From IMG/VR virus record IMGVR_UViG_2721755726_000003: DNA of 36,569 bases; one strand, given 5' to 3'. This DNA is from a virus. Lineage: Duplodnaviria > Heunggongvirae > Uroviricota > Caudoviricetes. Shown one piece after another: positions 2,621 to 35,516 of this stretch. The notes under the pieces were generated by a model that did no database searches, was not told the origin of the DNA, and was given only the letters and a program-made list of their open reading frames with translations. How positions within the stretch are numbered: the first letter of the stretch is position 1; each line of letters begins with the position of its first letter. Position numbers and translations under genes: made by a program.

Positions 2621-2732
2621 AACTGAAGTTGCCCTGAAAATGAAATTTTTTTGCACAACCGCAGAACTTTTCCGCAGGGCATCAGTCTTAATTAGTGCCA
2701 CTGCTTTTCTTTGATGTCCCCATTTTGTGGAG

Positions 2733-2776
2733 CCCATCAACCCCGCCATTTCGGTTCAAGGTTGATGGGTTTTTTG
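2733..2776 (+). terminator. putative rho-independent terminator downstream of ybjL
   Basis: 10-bp stem cccatcaacc/ggttgatggg followed by TTTTTTG; loop is long (17 nt), so modest confidence. Confidence 0.4.
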
Positions 2777-2855
2777 TTGCCTGAAATTTAAGCTGTTTAA
2801 AATCATGATGTTAGAAACACTGTTTTTTAACGATGGCGACAAAATGGCGGCAGCG

Positions 2856-24649: not shown

Positions 24650-26059
24650 TTACTCATCTACTCTGATTTTTTGTTTTTTATTATTTTGAGTTAAGACATT
24701 TATGGTAATAGATGTATACGGATGAAAGTCAGGCACTATACTTTTAACCTCTCCATTTTCAAGAAAATGATGTGCTATTGAAGGAAATAAATCAGGATCT
24801 ACAGGATATTTAGCATTAGGATTATGATACATATTTAAACCTTCTGCCCATGTTTCTGTAATATCGCCTTCTTTCACTTCAAAACTAAATGCTGCTGGAT
24901 ATAATGCCTCTGGGTCATGATCATGGCAGTAACCACTCCTAAATAATCTAAGGTCACTTCTTCCAAAACCAGCCAGTTTTCCCATCCGATTAAACTTCGA
25001 TATAGTACCACTATTAGAACTAAGGACGGCCGAAATATTTTCAGACTCATCCAAGAAGAAAAAGCCTGAAGGAATTTCCTTTTTCTCAAATTGATGCGAT
25101 ATAATTTTCTTAGTTGCTAAACTGTAACATCCATCTTCAGATTTAACATGCTCATAGCGAATACCATAAAGATACTGCCAAAGTGCACTATGGGACCAAA
25201 TCATAGAGTTTGGTTCATGAAAATCAGCAATTGCGAAAATTAAAGGATTCCCCTTAACATGTTCTAGATCCCAGTATCGAGTTTTCTTTTTCAGTTTAGA
25301 ATAGAGAGAACTTCCAAATTTAATCGGCATATAATTCTCTATTTTCTCTAGCAATTCTTCCTTACTTTTAGGTTCAGATAGCATTTCAGATGATTGATTA
25401 ATATCATTCCCTGTTGGATTAACCGTTACAGCTTCAATGCAAATAGTATTACCATACTTACGTGCCACATAATCAGGGGCATTAAACTGCCTATCTAGCC
25501 AAAAGTGTTCCTCTCGTAAATATGCGAAAAGATATAACTCCCATAGCCGGGCATCAAAACCTGTTGTCTGAAACTGCTCTATAAAATTCCCGTCGACATC
25601 CTCAAAATGATTCATCATTTCCTTGATTATCCCTGTTGCAGGCGACCAGTTCGCGTATTTACCAAATAATGAAAAATGATGATGAAGTTTATCTGGTGTA
25701 ACTATAGGTGTGAATAAATCCATTGCTTTATAAGTTTCATCACCTTGTGGAAATACTTTTACGTTTAATTTAGTATGCTTCCGCATTAATTTCTTTAGTT
25801 TTGCTCGTGCAGAATTCATTTCTGAAACACTAGTAAATAGGTCAATACATCTATATCTCCCACTTAAGTCTCTTGCTAAAACAATACCGCTATAATCTTC
25901 ATCGATTTGATCCAATAATAGTGCCCCTAGCAGGAACTCTCTCGGACTACAGTACCACTCAAACTCATAGCCTAAAAGTTCAGTATTTGGCATTCTGGTC
26001 CAATCAACAAAAGCATTAAACCTCTCTTTACTCATTTTTTTTATATCAAGAAAAGACAT
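24650..26059 (-). CDS. hypothetical 469-aa protein, AT-rich accessory gene (candidate defence/exclusion cargo)
   Basis: Long uninterrupted ORF, ATG start with GAGGT SD, visibly AT-rich against GC-rich phage core; no family recognised by eye. Confidence 0.75.
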   Translation of the reverse strand: MSFLDIKKMSKERFNAFVDWTRMPNTELLGYEFEWYCSPREFLLGALLLDQIDEDYSGIVLARDLSGRYRCIDLFTSVSEMNSARAKLKKLMRKHTKLNVKVFPQGDETYKAMDLFTPIVTPDKLHHHFSLFGKYANWSPATGIIKEMMNHFEDVDGNFIEQFQTTGFDARLWELYLFAYLREEHFWLDRQFNAPDYVARKYGNTICIEAVTVNPTGNDINQSSEMLSEPKSKEELLEKIENYMPIKFGSSLYSKLKKKTRYWDLEHVKGNPLIFAIADFHEPNSMIWSHSALWQYLYGIRYEHVKSEDGCYSLATKKIISHQFEKKEIPSGFFFLDESENISAVLSSNSGTISKFNRMGKLAGFGRSDLRLFRSGYCHDHDPEALYPAAFSFEVKEGDITETWAEGLNMYHNPNAKYPVDPDLFPSIAHHFLENGEVKSIVPDFHPYTSITINVLTQNNKKQKIRVDE

Positions 26060-26555: not shown

Positions 26556-26891
26556 ATGAACAATATTCCCCCTATACCACAGTTAGGAATTTATGTCTCA
26601 AAAATCGATCCCACCCTACGTATCACTGTAACCGATGTTGATATTGTTGATGGTGAGGATGATTCTCCTGATGATGAATTGTTTTATTTAGTCCACTGGA
26701 TCGAGGGGGAAGATGAAAGTGATATGACAGCAATGGGATTTGAGCTAGACCCATTAGAGTGGCAGGCTTTCGTTGAATCTGAGCAATTAGTGTTTGAGCG
26801 TGATCCGTACATGGATTCAATCCCCGAAAATTCAAACTTGGCAAAGATTCGGGATTTTCTCATGAAGACTAAACAGAATGATCATTCGTAA
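26556..26891 (+). CDS. hypothetical small acidic protein (111 aa)
   Basis: ATG with AAGGAG SD; about 26 Asp/Glu against about 7 basic residues by hand count; AT-rich. Confidence 0.65.
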   Translation: MNNIPPIPQLGIYVSKIDPTLRITVTDVDIVDGEDDSPDDELFYLVHWIEGEDESDMTAMGFELDPLEWQAFVESEQLVFERDPYMDSIPENSNLAKIRDFLMKTKQNDHS

Positions 26892-27083
26892 GTGTAAGCA
26901 TCCATCAGGAAAATGGTTTTGTAAGTGAATCATCAACTTTTAGAGAGTCTCAGACACTCCCACTTCTGCTTCTGACACAAAGCGGACGATCACTTATCAA
27001 AATAACCGCCCACCTTACGCCTTATTTCACTCATTGCCCAAACTAGCCCCCATCAGAATGAATCCTCCTGGGGGCAACATTTC

Positions 27084-27317
27084 TTAATGCAGCCAGCTGT
27101 CGTCCTCCCACACCTTCTGCATAATTTTCATCACTTGTTTTCTTTCTTCATCCAGTTGCAGTCCGGTTAGTTCCACACCGTTAGAGCTACCTTTGCGAAT
27201 GCGAATTACCGTTTTGGGATACAGGGGGCGCAGATTGCGGTAAAGCTCGGATTCAAGTGCGTCCAGGGTAGACTGGCTAATCTTCTGCTCTTTATCGATC
27301 ATTATTTCAATGCGCAT
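27084..27317 (-). CDS. DinI-family protein
   Basis: 77-aa product MRIEIMIDKEQKIS...KVWEDDSWL resembles E. coli DinI (MRIEVTI...WESADDWF); start at internal Met with GGTGA SD, track ORF extends to 27389. Confidence 0.7.
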   Translation of the reverse strand: MRIEIMIDKEQKISQSTLDALESELYRNLRPLYPKTVIRIRKGSSNGVELTGLQLDEERKQVMKIMQKVWEDDSWLH

Positions 27318-27327
27318 AAAAGTCACC

Positions 27328-27516
27328 TCAGCTGATGACATCCATTGAGCGGTTGTATTCGTGGCTTCTGATTTTTGCCATGAGTTCATCAGTCAATTCA
27401 GAAACCCACTGCAGAGCCAGCCCCTTCTCTTCATCACTACACTCACTAGCCGCTACAAGCTTAAGAAAAAAATCAATGCGCTGGAGCTTCAAAGACTCCA
27501 AAAAATAGTCCTGCAT
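27328..27516 (-). CDS. hypothetical 62-aa SOS-operon protein (possible N-terminal part of a Tum-like antirepressor)
   Basis: ATG with GGAGG SD immediately downstream of LexA box; stops 11 nt before DinI-like start. Confidence 0.5.
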   Translation of the reverse strand: MQDYFLESLKLQRIDFFLKLVAASECSDEEKGLALQWVSELTDELMAKIRSHEYNRSMDVIS

Positions 27517-27557
27517 CTTTCCTCCTATGACACCAAAACAATACTGTATGCATAACC

Positions 27558-27577
27558 ACTGTTTATATTTACAGTAT
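27558..27577 (-). promoter_or_regulatory. LexA box (SOS operator) with promoter
   Basis: ACTGTTTATATTTACAGTAT matches CTGT-N8-ACAG consensus; TTTACA -35-like hexamer just upstream on the minus strand; degenerate second half-site at 27541..27556. Confidence 0.7.
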
Positions 27578-27668
27578 ATAATAATCTTACTGATGTAAAA
27601 CGTTTTTTTACGTTCATCGGCCTGATATGCCTGGTATTATTAAGAGCACGAATTGTTAACCCGCGTAA

Positions 27669-30089
27669 TTAATACAGGTTCCGCCACTTATCATCTTCCT
27701 TCAGACGCTGGTTCCGATAGAAGATACGCAGGCCTGCTCCTGACGGAATACTGCCGCCGCGAAGGAGCAAATCGACTTCTTTCTCGCTGCCATCAAATCC
27801 CCTGGACTTCAGTTCATAGACGAGCTGCTGTCGCTGATGGTCTGTAATTCGCTGTTTGTAGTCTTTACGCCGTTTCGGTTTCACCTGGCGTAACCTTGCA
27901 GCCAGTTCCCGGCGCTCTTTTTTGCTCATACTGTGCAGGTAATCGTGCAACTCCTTGTCATTCATACGGGTAATATCCGTTCTGGAGTCCCCATCAGCTG
28001 ATTTGTCTTTCCCTTGTTGGTTCAAATTTTCAGCAAGGGGACAGTTATTGCCACGAGTCCAAGGGGCGCAAGCGCCCTGGTCGGCTGCCGCCTCCTGAAC
28101 GTCAACGGCCTTACGAACCATTTTCCACTTCACCGCATGAGTGCAGATCTTGCCCTCTGCAATGGGTGACCAGATGCCATAAATACGAATACCGTGATCG
28201 CCATAGGCGGTTGGCTCTTCGTTGATTTCATAAGCGGTTCTGATGAGGTGATATTTACGGGGAACCAGTACGCCGCCCTGCTTCATGATATAGGTGGCAA
28301 AACAACCAGCATCAGCAGCAGCCAGAATGGCATCAAGGCGCGGGTTATCCAGTACCGGCGCACCTGCTTTTTTGTCACCCTGTTGCCTTGCCGCCTGACC
28401 AGCCAGCAATCGCAGTTCACGGTAAGCCTGACGCCCCGGAATGCCAAAGAAGCGGAATTGCTGAACACGATGCAGAGACGCCCAGGCATTAACGTATTCA
28501 GCGTTATCACGCAGGGATTTACCCGTTTCCTTGCTGATCTCCCCAGCCAGACCACGCCCGTCAATGTTCTTACTGATGTATTTCGCGATGTAGCTTGTTG
28601 GCGTACCTTTGCGCGGGTTTATCAGCTCAGACTTAAAGCGTGGTCCCGTGTTATTGCCCAGCTCCTCGCGGTCTTCACGGATGGCAAACTTACGCAGTAA
28701 TGCAGTGATGGCGCGGCGGTCTTTTTTACGCATGAAACACATGAGATGCCAGTGCACAGTACCGTCATGATGCGGCTCAGCTACCCGCACGCCATACCAG
28801 CGCAACTCGGCTTTATGCATAGCCTTACGAAATGCAGCAAACATGCCGACCAGATAATCGCTACTTTGTCTTACCGTCGCGTTTGTCCAGGTCGGGTTTG
28901 GTCTGCCGTTATTGAGCGTGGAATGGAAACGCGACGGACAGGTGATAGTGTAGAAAACGGCACAGTCACTGCGCATTTCCGCGATAAGCTCCAGACCTTT
29001 AACACAGGCCATCATCTCATTGCGGCGATGCGCCGGGTTGCTGCTGCTGGCGTTTACCACATCTTCCATATCCAGCGTGTCGCCGTCTTCGTTCACCAGT
29101 TCATGAGAACGAAAAAACTCCAGCGACTTACGGCGCTGCTCACGTTTATGCATCACGGCTTCATAGCTGACATAGGGGGATGCTTTTTTGCTGACCAGGC
29201 AGACAGCACGCAACTGCTCTTCCCGCCATTCGCAACGCATCTTCCATAATTTCCGATACCACCAGTCGGCACACAACATACGCGCCAGCGAACCCGGGAT
29301 GAGTTCATAGGGCACTGGTTTGCGGCGGTTTCTTTTCCGACGAAGTTTCTCAAACGCAGGCGGGATAACATCCAGACGCAGGGTTTCCGCTGCCACCTTT
29401 TCCCATGTCTTGCGGATTTCTTCTGGCTTAACGTCATCGGTGGCATACAAATCACCACAAGCGTCCTCAAGACACATGCTCATATGCGCTGCTACCAGGG
29501 TGGACAGGCGTTTCACCTGATCCTGGCTCATTTCAGGCAGGATCAGCAGCCCCTCCAGCCCTTGATGGCTTGCCATAAAACGGAAAGAAACAGATAGCTG
29601 ACTGTCACGTACACAATCCAGTCGCTCCAGACATGGCTTAATCGTCTCACGCAAATAGCGGGAATAAGCCTTTGGCCTGCCCAGGCTGCTGAAGTATTCA
29701 ATACGTTGCATCAGCGGCTTGCTGATATGGGAAGGCTGGGCGTTTACGTCCGCCAGAATGACCATGTCCGGATTAAAACGCTGCTGCTCATGCGCCAGCT
29801 TTGCCCGGCTAATGAGCTTATCCTGCTCCATTTCGCGCTGGACAGGATCACGGGATTCATTAAAGAAATAACGCTCCCAGACCTGCTCACTCAGTGCCTC
29901 GCGGCGCAGTTGCTCCTGCTCGTTATCGGCAGCGTACAGAGTGATCAGGTTTGAAAGTGCAGACTCCGGCGCAACTTCCGCCGGGTCCAGATAAGGGTTA
30001 ATGGCCTTTTTCGAGCCGTTCCATGAAAATGCTGCGGCGGCCTCGTTAAAGCCGCTGCAATTGTTCATATCGTCATGACTCATACACAC
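27669..30089 (-). CDS. A: rolling-circle replication initiation protein A
   Basis: 806-aa ORF, P2 gpA-like, HWH metal-binding motif (VHWHLMCF) and catalytic Tyr-containing YIAKYISK. Confidence 0.9.
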
Positions 30090-32826: not shown

Positions 32827-33768
32827 ATGTCAACTAATAAAATCACATTTCGCCATATTGAAGATCATCTGAAAGCCATGGTCATGCAGAATCGAGGAGG
32901 GCAAAAAGTCATTGAGAGAATACTCATGGCCTATGGTTTCAAATCACGCCAAGCATTCTGTAACCACCTTGGTATTTCACAAAGTACAATGGCTAACAGA
33001 TATGCACGCGATACCTTCCCTGCTGATTGGGTTGTTATATGTTCAATGGAAACTGGCGCATCAATCGAATGGTTAGCATTTGGTTTAGATGCTGAAGAAG
33101 GAGTGCCAGTTCCTTCGCCAGAACGGCATGCTGAAAAACAGTCTGCAGATGAATTTTGCAATGAAGTTCACACCCCCACGATAAAGTTCGATAATGAAAA
33201 CCACATGGATTTCACTCGAGGGGGTAAAGCAGCAATAGAGCGAATTGTTAAGGCTTACGGTTACAAAACGCGCCAAGCCTTAGCCGATCACCTTGGTATC
33301 TCAAAAAGCACATTAGCTACACGATACATGCGAGACATTTTTCCGGCAGACTGGATCATCCAATGCTGTTTAGAAACAGGAGTGTCTCTCGAGTGGTTAT
33401 CTTTTGGTAAGGGGCATTCCAATCAAACAAAGCTAAGTGGGTTGCTTACATTAGACTGCTATGATCTACGTGACGGCAAACTTACTGATCAAAGAGAATT
33501 AATCGTTTCGAGCGAAATTTTACCTCAAAATTTAAAACATCCCTATATAGTTAATTCCGCAAATGATTCATATATCATTAGCAAAGAGGAGTATCTTAGC
33601 GATGGTCTATGGTTAGTATCTATTAACGGAGAATTTACTTTTAGAGACATATTTAAACTTCCAAACAATCGCATCCGCGTTGAAAACACAAAATATAGCT
33701 TTGAATGCGATAAAGAAGATTTGGAATTTAATAATAAAGTTAAAGGAATAATTAGAAAAAGGGTTTAA
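32827..33768 (+). CDS. cI: CI immunity repressor with tandemly duplicated N-terminal DNA-binding domain
   Basis: Two about 67-aa repeats (residues 22-88 and 130-196) each resembling the 186 CI N-terminal domain, then a C-terminal domain. Confidence 0.7.
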   Translation: MSTNKITFRHIEDHLKAMVMQNRGGQKVIERILMAYGFKSRQAFCNHLGISQSTMANRYARDTFPADWVVICSMETGASIEWLAFGLDAEEGVPVPSPERHAEKQSADEFCNEVHTPTIKFDNENHMDFTRGGKAAIERIVKAYGYKTRQALADHLGISKSTLATRYMRDIFPADWIIQCCLETGVSLEWLSFGKGHSNQTKLSGLLTLDCYDLRDGKLTDQRELIVSSEILPQNLKHPYIVNSANDSYIISKEEYLSDGLWLVSINGEFTFRDIFKLPNNRIRVENTKYSFECDKEDLEFNNKVKGIIRKRV

Positions 33769-33770
33769 CA

Positions 33771-34820
33771 ATGAGCTTTACGAAAACTATTGAATTTGCA
33801 AACTATACCTTAAATTTTGGAGAGGACAAAGTTCTCTTAGATGCTTTTGATTGCATTGTTTTTCCTTCATTTTTCGCACAAAAATACGTTAGAAAATTTA
33901 AAGATACAGAATATTTCTTTACTGACACAAAAATTATTACGTTAGATACTACAGATTCAGATTTTATTGGTCCTATAGTTCCAACAATTGCATTGTGTGG
34001 CCGCATTATAAAAAAGACCATATTTAAACGAGATCAAATATTTCAAGATGGTCAATTAATTCGAGATCACAGGACGCTAGAAAGTCACCCCAGCTCTATT
34101 TTTATTCTTATGCTTAATGAGCACAGATTAATGCTTTGCAAAGAGGTTTCTGGAGCCCCTACCCTAGAAGAATTTGAAAATACTAGCAAGTATTGCCTTG
34201 CACAGCGATATAATTCTTTTGTGGATTACGAAGTAAAAAAAAATAAAAGAATTAGAAAGAAAAAATCATACATTGATCGACTGTATAAAAAAGATATTTA
34301 TCGTAAACTAGGAGCCCCCAAATTACGGGTTACCCCCTTAACAGACCCAAGATCATTGAGCAATTTTGTTGAACTCTTTTCTGTTGTTAATAGATTATCA
34401 ATTGAGTTATTGCCAACAAATAGTGAAAATATATCTCTTGATGGCTTCTGGAGGAAAATTGAACAAGAAAAAGAAGAACTTAATAGTAGTAAAGCTCAAT
34501 TAGTATACACAAATAAAAATGAAGATGGTTTAAATTCTGAGGCCGTCATTCAAAAAACAACAAGTGCAACCCGAATGGCCAACTCTAAAGTAATTATCAG
34601 TGGTAAAGATGAACACGGAGCAAGGCTATCAGGGAATAATGATAGTTTTACTCTAAAAGCATCAAGGCCACAACTTAGTTCTGATTTGGAAAGAGCTGCT
34701 CAAGAGGCGTATTCTGCATTCACAGAATTAAAGGATGAAGGAAATATTATTATTCCAGAACGTGAAGATTATACTAAAATTTTTTCCAAGTTAACATCAA
34801 TAATTTCTAGGTGGCTATAG
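33771..34820 (+). CDS. hypothetical 349-aa soluble protein, component A of cI-linked accessory cassette
   Basis: ATG 2 nt after cI stop; AT-rich; Lys-rich central segment; no recognised motif. Confidence 0.7.
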   Translation: MSFTKTIEFANYTLNFGEDKVLLDAFDCIVFPSFFAQKYVRKFKDTEYFFTDTKIITLDTTDSDFIGPIVPTIALCGRIIKKTIFKRDQIFQDGQLIRDHRTLESHPSSIFILMLNEHRLMLCKEVSGAPTLEEFENTSKYCLAQRYNSFVDYEVKKNKRIRKKKSYIDRLYKKDIYRKLGAPKLRVTPLTDPRSLSNFVELFSVVNRLSIELLPTNSENISLDGFWRKIEQEKEELNSSKAQLVYTNKNEDGLNSEAVIQKTTSATRMANSKVIISGKDEHGARLSGNNDSFTLKASRPQLSSDLERAAQEAYSAFTELKDEGNIIIPEREDYTKIFSKLTSIISRWL

Positions 34821-34821
34821 T

Positions 34822-35427
34822 ATGAAATATACATTCAACCCAGAAGATCTGACCAAAGAGCGATCTTTGCATGATGTTTACAAATTAACTAAAAAAATAA
34901 AGGTCAATTCATTTGACTTTTATTTCACATTATTGTTAGTGATATTATTATCTATTAATGCTTTTTGTCTATCTTCATCACCAGAGTTAATTTCATCTAT
35001 TAGACAATGGACACCTTTAGTATTCGGATTCACTACAACAACATTAGGTTTTTTAATTACTGGATTTACAATATTTGCAACCATAAATAAACCTGAACTT
35101 TTCCTTTCATTAATGGAGTATAAGCATCCATTATACGGGATAAGTTACTTAAAATATGTTTATGGTGTATTTATGAGAGTATTTATATATTTCATATTTT
35201 GGTCTGTTATCTATCTTTTAGTCCTTCTTTTCGGGCAAGAAAATGGATTGGCTACAAAATTACTCAGAGCCTTAATGTTTTCTCATTGCACTAAAGTTGT
35301 TGGAGTTCAAATACTATATATACTCGTAGGAAGCAGTGCAGTGTTCCTTGTATTAACTTTAAAAACTTTCCTGTTCAATATTTATGCTATGTTAATGCAA
35401 TCTCTACGCTGGGAAGTAGAAAGATAA
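34822..35427 (+). CDS. hypothetical 201-aa membrane protein with four predicted TM helices, component B of cI-linked accessory cassette
   Basis: ATG 1 nt after upstream stop with AGGTGG SD; four hydrophobic stretches of about 20 residues; AT-rich. Confidence 0.7.
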   Translation: MKYTFNPEDLTKERSLHDVYKLTKKIKVNSFDFYFTLLLVILLSINAFCLSSSPELISSIRQWTPLVFGFTTTTLGFLITGFTIFATINKPELFLSLMEYKHPLYGISYLKYVYGVFMRVFIYFIFWSVIYLLVLLFGQENGLATKLLRALMFSHCTKVVGVQILYILVGSSAVFLVLTLKTFLFNIYAMLMQSLRWEVER

Positions 35428-35436
35428 AATTAACCT

Positions 35437-35516
35437 CAATGTATGAATCTTAATTCATATACATTGACACTGGTTATACATACAGTAAAAATGCTCTCCA
35501 CTGGAGGGCATTTTTT
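35437..35516 (+). promoter_or_regulatory. int upstream region with imperfect palindrome, TTGACA hexamer and hairpin plus T-run
   Basis: Imperfect inverted repeat caatgtatgaat...attcatatacattg, perfect TTGACA at 35464..35469, stem-loop gctctccactggagggc followed by TTTTTT directly before int ATG. Confidence 0.3.

Follow-up and report, generated by a model that had tools for sequence, protein, structure and literature searches.

A probable LexA-repressed two-cistron tumA-tumB SOS operon in a Fels-2-type P2-like prophage

The stretch of viral DNA analysed here, referred to as the window, is 36,569 nt long and carries a compact locus of two small genes directly downstream of its P2 A-type replication gene A (806 aa, 30089..27669, minus strand). 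The operon formed by these genes, tumA and tumB, lies on the same strand as gene A, as do its LexA box and promoter elements. tumA is the first gene of its own operon after gene A, an arrangement shared with Fels-2, 186 and PSP3. The tumA-like gene, which encodes a presumed antirepressor of 62 aa, occupies 27328..27516 on the minus strand (27516..27328 in reading direction) and matches PHROG 698 over its full length. It is preceded by a Shine-Dalgarno sequence, GGAGGA (27520..27525, minus), that is kept as GGAGG(A/G) in relatives. tumB encodes a DinI-like protein of 77 aa at 27084..27317 (minus; 27317..27084 in reading direction).

The junction between the two genes is tightly packed. The Shine-Dalgarno sequence of tumB, GAGGTGA (27323..27329, minus), overlaps the tumA stop codon TGA (27330..27328), and relatives carry AGGGGA or AAGGGA at this position despite their differing stop codons and spacing. 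An initial annotation of this DNA had described a 62-aa ORF followed, in a different frame, by a 77-aa DinI-like ORF, which is correct, with tumB in the +1 frame relative to tumA. It had also counted 11 nt between the first stop and the second start, where the actual gap is 10 nt (GGTGACTTTT), and had located an A5 run (caaaaatc) near 27340..27350 that is in fact found at 27371-27378. No single ORF spans both modules: a TGA stop, the 10-nt gap and the +1 frame change intervene. An extended call for the DinI ORF, of 101 aa (27389..27084), was considered and set aside as an over-extension, its additional N-terminal part being absent or different in relatives. Scanning the junction for terminators and hairpins returned a weak hairpin alone, over the tumA stop and the tumB Shine-Dalgarno (27339..27322). 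A regulatory or coupling role for this hairpin was dropped, as its z of -1.5 is not significant and it is not conserved in relatives. A search against Rfam gave no RNA family within or near the locus.

TumB matches the Pfam DinI profile (PF06183) at 6.6e-23, scoring 81.3 bits against a cut-off of 24.2 and covering profile positions 1-63 of 63, and PHROG 189, "RecA filament binding protein DinI", at 1.5e-29 (profile positions 71-148). It is 78% identical to PSP3 TumB and 41% identical to residues 71-145 of 186 Tum (E 3e-24). The latter protein, described in the initial annotation as an antirepressor of roughly 140 aa with a DinI-like C-terminal half, is indeed 146 aa long and has this organization. 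Identification of TumB as the host DinI was rejected, its score against the NCBIfam equivalog NF007893 being 42.7 bits against a cut-off of 111. Judged by these profiles, TumB is a phage DinI-like paralogue and not chromosomal dinI. Its family membership, together with the remark "modulates SOS induction" in the 186 record, suggests that it binds RecA filaments and modulates the SOS response.

The assignment of TumA relies on more distant relationships. The database holds 484 homologues of tumA, 55-109 aa long among the matches listed. NCBIfam has no model for TumA, and Pfam returned just a sub-threshold chance match. The AlphaFold2 model is a two-helix hairpin (helices 2-23 and 28-61, pLDDT 88) with a conserved Cys in the turn; a Foldseek search of this model against the PDB retrieved generic helical hairpins only, none with E <= 0.001. 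BLASTP gave no alignment between TumA and 186 Tum, and tblastn of TumA against phages reached neither 186 nor PSP3. Comparing TumA with the family of the 186 N-terminal half by hhalign produced a gap-free alignment of residues 3-43 to 3-43 in which the invariant Cys26 is aligned, at E 1.7e-4 with a probability of only 50%. An iterative HMM built from the window TumA alone (Z = 1.8e9) scored 186 Tum at 28.6 bits in iteration 2, before any 186-type sequence had joined the profile, and at E 6.9e-8 in iteration 3. The Fels-2-type and 186-type TumA proteins are linked through intermediate sequences. PSP3 TumA (60 aa) shows no detectable similarity to the window TumA, and the iterative profile also fails to reach it. 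Taken at the level of profiles, TumA and the N-terminal (antirepressor) half of 186 Tum are remote homologues, and this relationship, combined with synteny, supports its presumed role as an antirepressor.

Upstream of tumA, the near-consensus LexA box reported in the initial annotation (ACTGTTTATATTTACAGTAT) is present in the sequence. This box 1 spans 27557-27576 (minus, TACTGTAAATATAAACAGTG; plus-strand 20-mer CACTGTTTATATTTACAGTA) and has 3 mismatches to the consensus TACTGTATATATATACAGTA, mismatch counts against the consensus being the measure by which LexA boxes were graded. No other match with <=3 mismatches occurs in the 36.6 kb of the window, and 100 shuffles did not yield any. Among the loci examined, 186 and PSP3 included, a LexA box was found 20-48 nt 5' of the tumA or tum start in nine out of nine. 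Describing the operator as a single box was nevertheless incomplete: an overlapping LexA-like box, box 2, lies at 27542-27561 (minus, CAGTGGTTATGCATACAGTA) and had been missed. It has 6 mismatches to the consensus, with GTG replacing the canonical CTG, shares 5 nt with box 1 and is offset from it by +15 nt, which is the layout of a colicin-type double SOS box. By sequence arrangement (an overlap of about 5 nt and an offset of 15 nt), the operator belongs to this double overlapping type. Box 2 occurs in all five Fels-2-type loci, with 4-6 mismatches in the relatives; in the operator comparison it was not found in 186, PSP3 or the ESSI2-type phages.

A putative -35 hexamer, TTTACA (27594..27599, minus), can be read from the sequence; 17 nt separate it from a downstream TACTGT that forms the left arm of LexA box 1 and that we take as the -10 element. 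The proposed -10 matches TATAAT at 3 of 6 positions, and a generic sigma-70 scan called no promoter at the tum locus. The arrangement TTTACA-17 nt-TACTGT is kept in all five Fels-2-type loci. This conservation and the resemblance of the layout to that of 186 p95 support the position proposed for the tum promoter, which the LexA operator would overlap. Overall, the box, the profile matches and the remote homology to Tum agree on an operon that is fronted by a LexA box and contains a DinI-like gene and a Tum-type antirepressor gene, as had been suggested from the sequence at the outset.

The operon probably ends directly after the tumB stop, where a G+C-rich hairpin is found at 27046..27075 (minus; -19.2 kcal/mol, z -2.2). 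Hairpins with unrelated stems (z -2.7 to -6.2) occur at the matching place in MLG42, SopEPhi, Klebsiella phi4.1 and PSP3, and there is no clear U-tract after the one in the window. It is a putative operon terminator, and would be the positional counterpart of 186 t95a. With Fels-2 and Klebsiella phages, similarity reaches no further than the tumB stop codon (for Fels-2, to ~27086); matches to E. coli phages extend ~12 nt past it, to about 27074. Beyond this point lies variable cargo, in the window an ORF of 111 aa in convergent orientation and a defence gene, PD-T7-1 (padloc, 1.4e-196). At the corresponding position E. coli W has GmrSD, 186 has orf97 and Fels-2 an orf97-like gene.

The locus is widespread. 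Over its 700-bp region, Salmonella phage Fels-2 shows 96.6% identity, and for many P2-like phages of Klebsiella, E. coli and Salmonella the figure is 93-98%; megablast detected the region in 1124 of 5426 complete E. coli genomes. E. coli W carries the same pair of genes, of 189 nt and 234 nt, with 10 nt between them. To compare more diverged versions, the locus was taken from Fels-2, SopEPhi, Yersinia phage MLG42, Klebsiella phage ST437-OXA245phi4.1 and PSP3. In this order, the intercistronic gap measures 10, 11, 12, 11 and 3 nt, tumB is offset from the tumA frame by 1, 2, 0, 2 and 0, and the tumA stop codon is TGA, TAA, TAG, TAA and TAG. In every relative extracted, tumB has its own purine-rich Shine-Dalgarno sequence and an ATG start. 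dN/dS values were 0.06-0.12 for tumA and 0.00-0.10 for tumB (dS about 0.1-1.6), and 0.03-0.12 for the two ORFs at dS ~1. Such low ratios indicate that both ORFs are real coding sequences under purifying selection. On this comparative evidence, tumA and tumB are two separate, intact cistrons and not a fused Tum of the 186 type.

We next asked how common each architecture is in the family as a whole. An alignment of Fels-2-type and 186-type sequences, collinear and gap-free, was used for an exhaustive profile search against 1.84 billion cluster representatives, which returned 152 proteins at E <= 0.001. The survey of architectures covers the 150 of these proteins that were listed, each a representative at 50% identity. 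Among them, 121 are <=80 aa long and another 20 measure 81-110 aa; the longer representatives that were examined have extra N-terminal residues before the TumA match, consistent with over-extended start calls. Fusions of TumA to DinI were limited, among the 150, to P0255 (146 aa, complete), P0242 and the truncated P0158. All three are of the 186 type, and no fused Fels-2-type protein was present among the listed representatives. Many homologues of the 186-type N-terminal half are themselves stand-alone proteins of 63-78 aa with the source name "Tum protein", and a search with the 186 N-half returned no full-length 146-aa protein among its best 120 matches. The ratio of fused to split forms is taken from the exhaustive search of representatives and not from this best-120 list. 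In ESSI2-type phages, a tumA-like gene stands behind a LexA box without a DinI gene. Across the proteins surveyed, tumA is thus normally a gene of its own, either paired with tumB or alone, and the fusion seen in 186 is exceptional. The single 146-aa Tum of 186 is very probably an uncommon fused form of both modules, and not the ancestral intact form.

The window also encodes the partner that an antirepressor of this kind would require. A 186-family CI repressor of 313 aa with tandem HTH domains is found at 32827..33768 on the plus strand (Phage_CI_repr, 2.5e-57, in two stretches; Phage_CI_C, 1.3e-19). CII (CP76) and a Dam-type methylase, after which comes gene A, are also encoded. A 73-aa ORF lies where Fels-2 and 186 annotate Apl. 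By its two domains, this CI is a cognate 186-family repressor within the same element. Its identity is 98.7% to the CI of Klebsiella phage 4LV2017, 35% to that of 186 and, overall, only 37% to that of Fels-2. The Fels-2 and 186 repressors lack its extra N-terminal HTH domain. TumA, on the other hand, is ~98% identical in phages whose CI proteins are only 38-52% identical overall. The two parts of CI differ in this respect: phages with a Fels-2-type TumA share 57-78% identity in the HTH domain, compared with 36% for 186, whereas in the C-terminal domain the identity is 22-29% for all phages compared. In these few sequences, the type of TumA therefore appears to track the HTH domain of CI rather than its C-terminal domain, a pattern that would fit TumA acting on the DNA-binding domain.

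The sequence features, their conservation, the purifying selection on both ORFs, the homologies and the family-wide split architecture are direct results of the analysis. Our interpretation, to which we assign a probability of about 0.85, is that the locus is a genuine two-cistron, LexA-repressed tumA-tumB SOS operon of a Fels-2-type P2-like (Peduoviridae) prophage that operates as follows. In an undamaged cell, LexA would sit on the double overlapping operator, covering the -10 region, and keep the operon off. DNA damage would activate RecA and lead to LexA self-cleavage, upon which the promoter would fire. TumA and TumB would then be translated independently, each from its own Shine-Dalgarno sequence, and the placement of the tumB Shine-Dalgarno over the tumA stop suggests that their translation may be coupled. 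The 62-aa TumA hairpin would bind the 186-family CI, its predicted target, probably at the HTH domain, and block operator binding, so that the lytic promoter would be derepressed without CI cleavage. TumB would bind RecA filaments and tune the strength or duration of the SOS signal. The presence of a 186-type CI, CII and an ORF at the Apl position makes 186-style SOS induction by antirepression the best mechanism for this element, and it is reasonable to expect the prophage to be SOS-inducible in this manner.

One explanation considered initially was that the two ORFs are the halves of a 140-aa 186-type tum gene, recently frameshifted or pseudogenised, or else split by an indel arising in sequencing or assembly, such as one at the A5 run. 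The sizes are suggestive, as 62 and 77 aa together come close to the 146 aa of 186 Tum and the modules follow in the same order; moreover, with no stop in the DinI frame as far upstream as 27389, the two frames could in principle be joined by altering one base near the A5 run (27372-27376). A sequencing error is nonetheless excluded by the occurrence of the identical split in Fels-2, in E. coli W and in hundreds of independent assemblies. The homologues in Fels-2, SopEPhi, MLG42, Klebsiella phages, E. coli W and PSP3 encode two proteins, and the diverged relatives vary in gap, frame and stop codon but always retain two ORFs with their own Shine-Dalgarno and ATG, which refutes a recent frameshift. 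Strong purifying selection on each ORF in its own frame, the lack of conservation of the upstream extension of the DinI frame and the survey of 150 representatives, free of Fels-2-type fusions, argue in the same direction, and we regard a broken tum as highly improbable. Two separate proteins with the same spacing in the homologues had been named as the observation that would speak against a frameshift. Two proteins are consistently encoded, but the spacing is not constant (3, 10, 11 or 12 nt). This variation, with frame offsets of 0, 1 and 2, indicates that selection maintains the stop, Shine-Dalgarno and restart, and is stronger evidence than constant spacing would be. The genuine two-cistron arrangement, listed at the outset as one of the alternatives, was the right one. 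A fused TumA-TumB antirepressor might still be made in addition to the two separate products, by programmed frameshifting or readthrough. The A5 run lies inside tumA, 24 open codons precede the tumB ATG in the downstream frame, and 186 shows that a fused protein is functional. Yet the shift required would be +1 in the window and Fels-2 and 2 in SopEPhi and Klebsiella phi4.1, while MLG42 and PSP3 have both genes in the same frame, separated by a stop. As no single shift works across the family, programmed frameshifting is disfavoured. GCA AAA ATC does not fit the canonical heptamer pattern X XXY YYZ, and the sole nearby hairpin is the weak, unconserved one described above; neither the frame relation, a slippery heptamer nor a stimulatory structure is conserved among the homologues. 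The chance that such a product contributes is, in our estimate, very slight.

A different concern is that the operon is LexA-regulated but that TumA fails on the tandem-HTH CI of the window, in which case the element would not be SOS-inducible and tumA-tumB would act solely in trans, on other prophages, or as a modulator of the SOS response. The near constancy of TumA against the divergence of CI implies that the antirepressor and the immunity region have been reassorted, so that a mismatch is conceivable, and with 37% identity to Fels-2 CI and an extra HTH domain, the sensitivity of the window CI to TumA is not guaranteed. There are also precedents: trans-acting antirepressors are documented in Salmonella (PMC3121763), and in the P2-like prophage BTP5 tum is expressed, yet infectious phage was undetected even with mitomycin C (PMC7067206). 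Against this, the HTH domain through which the window CI aligns with Fels-2 CI has 57% identity to it, compared with 36% for 186, and this TumA and this CI occur together again (98.4% and 98.7% identity) in the Klebsiella phage 4LV2017 group, whose members are deposited as phage genomes. Selection on tumA within the lineage is, in addition, strongly purifying. We therefore consider a TumA that does not act on its own CI unlikely, and retain the reading of a functional two-cistron operon that induces its own prophage.

The two-gene form of Fels-2- and PSP3-type prophages is known and ordinary. Lemire 2011 (PMC3121763) describes tum of Fels-2 and PSP3, citing Bunny 2002, as split in two by a stop codon, states that 186 Tum binds CI and prevents operator binding, and reports for PSP3, from a personal communication, that the upstream gene is an antirepressor and the downstream gene a DinI homologue. 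The title of Bunny et al. 2002, as given there, names the Fels-2 prophage as the cause of a lethal lexA-null phenotype. Fels-2 is the closest of the described systems. Its genes STM2728 (hypothetical) and STM2726.1 ("DinI family protein, similar to TumB of PsP3") follow gene A with the same 10-nt gap and an equal frame offset; TumA is 96.8% identical to that of the window, and the amino acids of TumB are identical (Nd = 0). Box 1 of its operator is identical to that of the window and box 2 differs at 3 positions. Fels-2 is distinguished by the orf97-like gene downstream, in place of the 111-aa ORF and PD-T7-1. PSP3 likewise has a two-cistron operon with a LexA box after gene A, annotated in its RefSeq record as separate genes tumA ("similar to 5' end 186 tum; UV induction of prophage") and tumB, but with a 3-nt gap, both genes in the same frame and a single LexA box.

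Phage 186 shares with the window a LexA-repressed promoter (p95) whose annotated -10 is the first six bases of the LexA site, the location after gene A and a 186-family CI. It differs in having the modules fused in one 146-aa ORF, a single LexA box and orf97 next in the operon. Its record notes several internal tum starts, including a GTG with AAGGAGG that would give the DinI-like C-terminal part alone. More distant is the likeness to the dinI-gfoA/gftA operons of Gifsy-1/2/3, which, as described in PMC3121763, have a LexA box, a DinI homologue and a small antirepressor directed against a non-cleavable repressor. In those lambdoid phages dinI comes first, and the antirepressor and repressor families are unrelated to those discussed here (same source).

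To our knowledge, two features have apparently remained undescribed for this group, namely the colicin-type double LexA operator at a Fels-2-type tum promoter and the near-invariant TumA accompanied by divergent CI proteins. The operator resembles those of colicin N and E8, with 20-bp boxes offset by 15 nt and the near-identical sequence TATACTGTA..A.CAGTGGTTAT...TACAGT. Nearly every base of its 36-bp double box matches when aligned with the promoter regions of colicin N and of a Klebsiella bacteriocin gene on small Col plasmids, and a match to the double box was found in >1100 plasmids. In the window this operator controls a prophage antirepressor, not a bacteriocin, and its position relative to the -10 is probably different. 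Colicin-type double SOS boxes are reported to bind two LexA dimers and to prevent untimely expression of a cell-lethal product (PMC2994835, PMC4482635). By analogy, repression of the tum promoter may be tight, with firing reserved for strong SOS signals. More tentatively, the double operator might set a higher or later SOS threshold, and TumA might be a broad-specificity antirepressor of a conserved DNA-binding domain, capable of cross-inducing co-resident P2-like prophages of different immunity; we put this forward as a possibility that is rather less likely to hold than to fail.

The predicted consequence of the operon is that a widespread P2-like prophage of E. coli and Klebsiella is SOS-inducible by antirepression, which would bear on antibiotic-triggered prophage induction and on the mobilisation of defence cargo such as PD-T7-1. 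The family survey reverses the intuitive polarity, in that the well-studied fused Tum of 186 is the exception and the two-gene form the rule. To specialists in P2 and 186 the remainder is textbook-level, and the double operator and the relation of TumA to the CI HTH domain are small additions. The analysis also settles the annotation: the small ORFs are intact and are to be named tumA and tumB, not a tum pseudogene. The E. coli records among the matches listed currently annotate the pair as "hypothetical protein" and "DinI-like family protein".

The tum operon of the window comprises tumA, encoding a presumed antirepressor, and tumB, encoding a DinI-like protein, and its operator carries two overlapping predicted LexA boxes (27542-27561 and 27557-27576). 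This double box was found in every Fels-2-type locus that we examined, and was absent from the compared loci of 186, PSP3, and the ESSI2-type phages. In both sequence and arrangement, the tum operator is nearly identical to the double SOS boxes found in colicin and bacteriocin promoters of Col plasmids. In the ESSI2-type phages (loci L003 and L004), a tumA-like gene with 41-49% identity lies behind a single LexA box and no DinI-like gene is present, indicating that the antirepressor module exists without TumB.

Downstream of tumB, we identified a variable cargo slot. In the window, it holds a PD-T7-1 anti-phage defense gene (24650-26059, minus strand; PADLOC E-value 1.4e-196) and a convergent 111-aa ORF (26556-26891, plus strand) that matches PHROG 17127, a family with no assigned function. 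The equivalent slot is occupied by a GmrSD-domain endonuclease in E. coli W, and by orf97 in Fels-2 and 186. Directly 3' of the tumB stop codon lies a hairpin (27046-27075), whose position is maintained in the tum loci of other relatives (L005-L008), while its stem sequence differs entirely from phage to phage. In the relatives, what comes after the hairpin is not a U-tract but a conserved GGTTGAACAACGAG..AGGCGAGGC motif. Candidate roles for this hairpin include a terminator, a stabilizer of the RNA 3' end, and a recombination boundary of the cargo slot.

The CI repressor, the inferred target of TumA, is a 313-aa protein (32827-33768, plus strand) in which the HTH domain of the Phage_CI_repr family is duplicated in tandem. 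The two copies, at residues 22-86 and 130-194, align clearly with each other and precede the usual C-terminal domain, whereas the CI proteins of Fels-2, Cartapus, and 186 each have one HTH. The duplication is shared with the CI proteins of Klebsiella phages 4LV2017 (98.7% identical to that of the window) and ST437-OXA245phi4.2 (52-53% identical).

Two inserted genes set cI and int apart in this element, both on the plus strand: a 349-aa ORF (33771-34820) with only a weak match to PHROG 10040, and a 201-aa ORF (34822-35427) resembling a membrane protein. Neither matched Pfam, PADLOC, or NCBIfam, and they may represent an uncharacterized cargo or defense pair. Since they separate int from cI, int may have gained its own SOS-controlled promoter, as its upstream sequence suggests: a second good LexA-like box of the window, CACTGGTTATACATACAGTA (35468-35487; four mismatches, CTG-N10-CAG intact), lies approximately 30 nt 5' of the integrase start (35517). 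Across this region, identity to the Klebsiella phage 4LV2017 group is 99.2%, too high to gauge conservation of the box.

Finally, the window contains an RybB sRNA gene (2700-2778, plus strand; Rfam, 105 bits), a probable marker of the prophage's host flank or of the side on which its attachment site lies.
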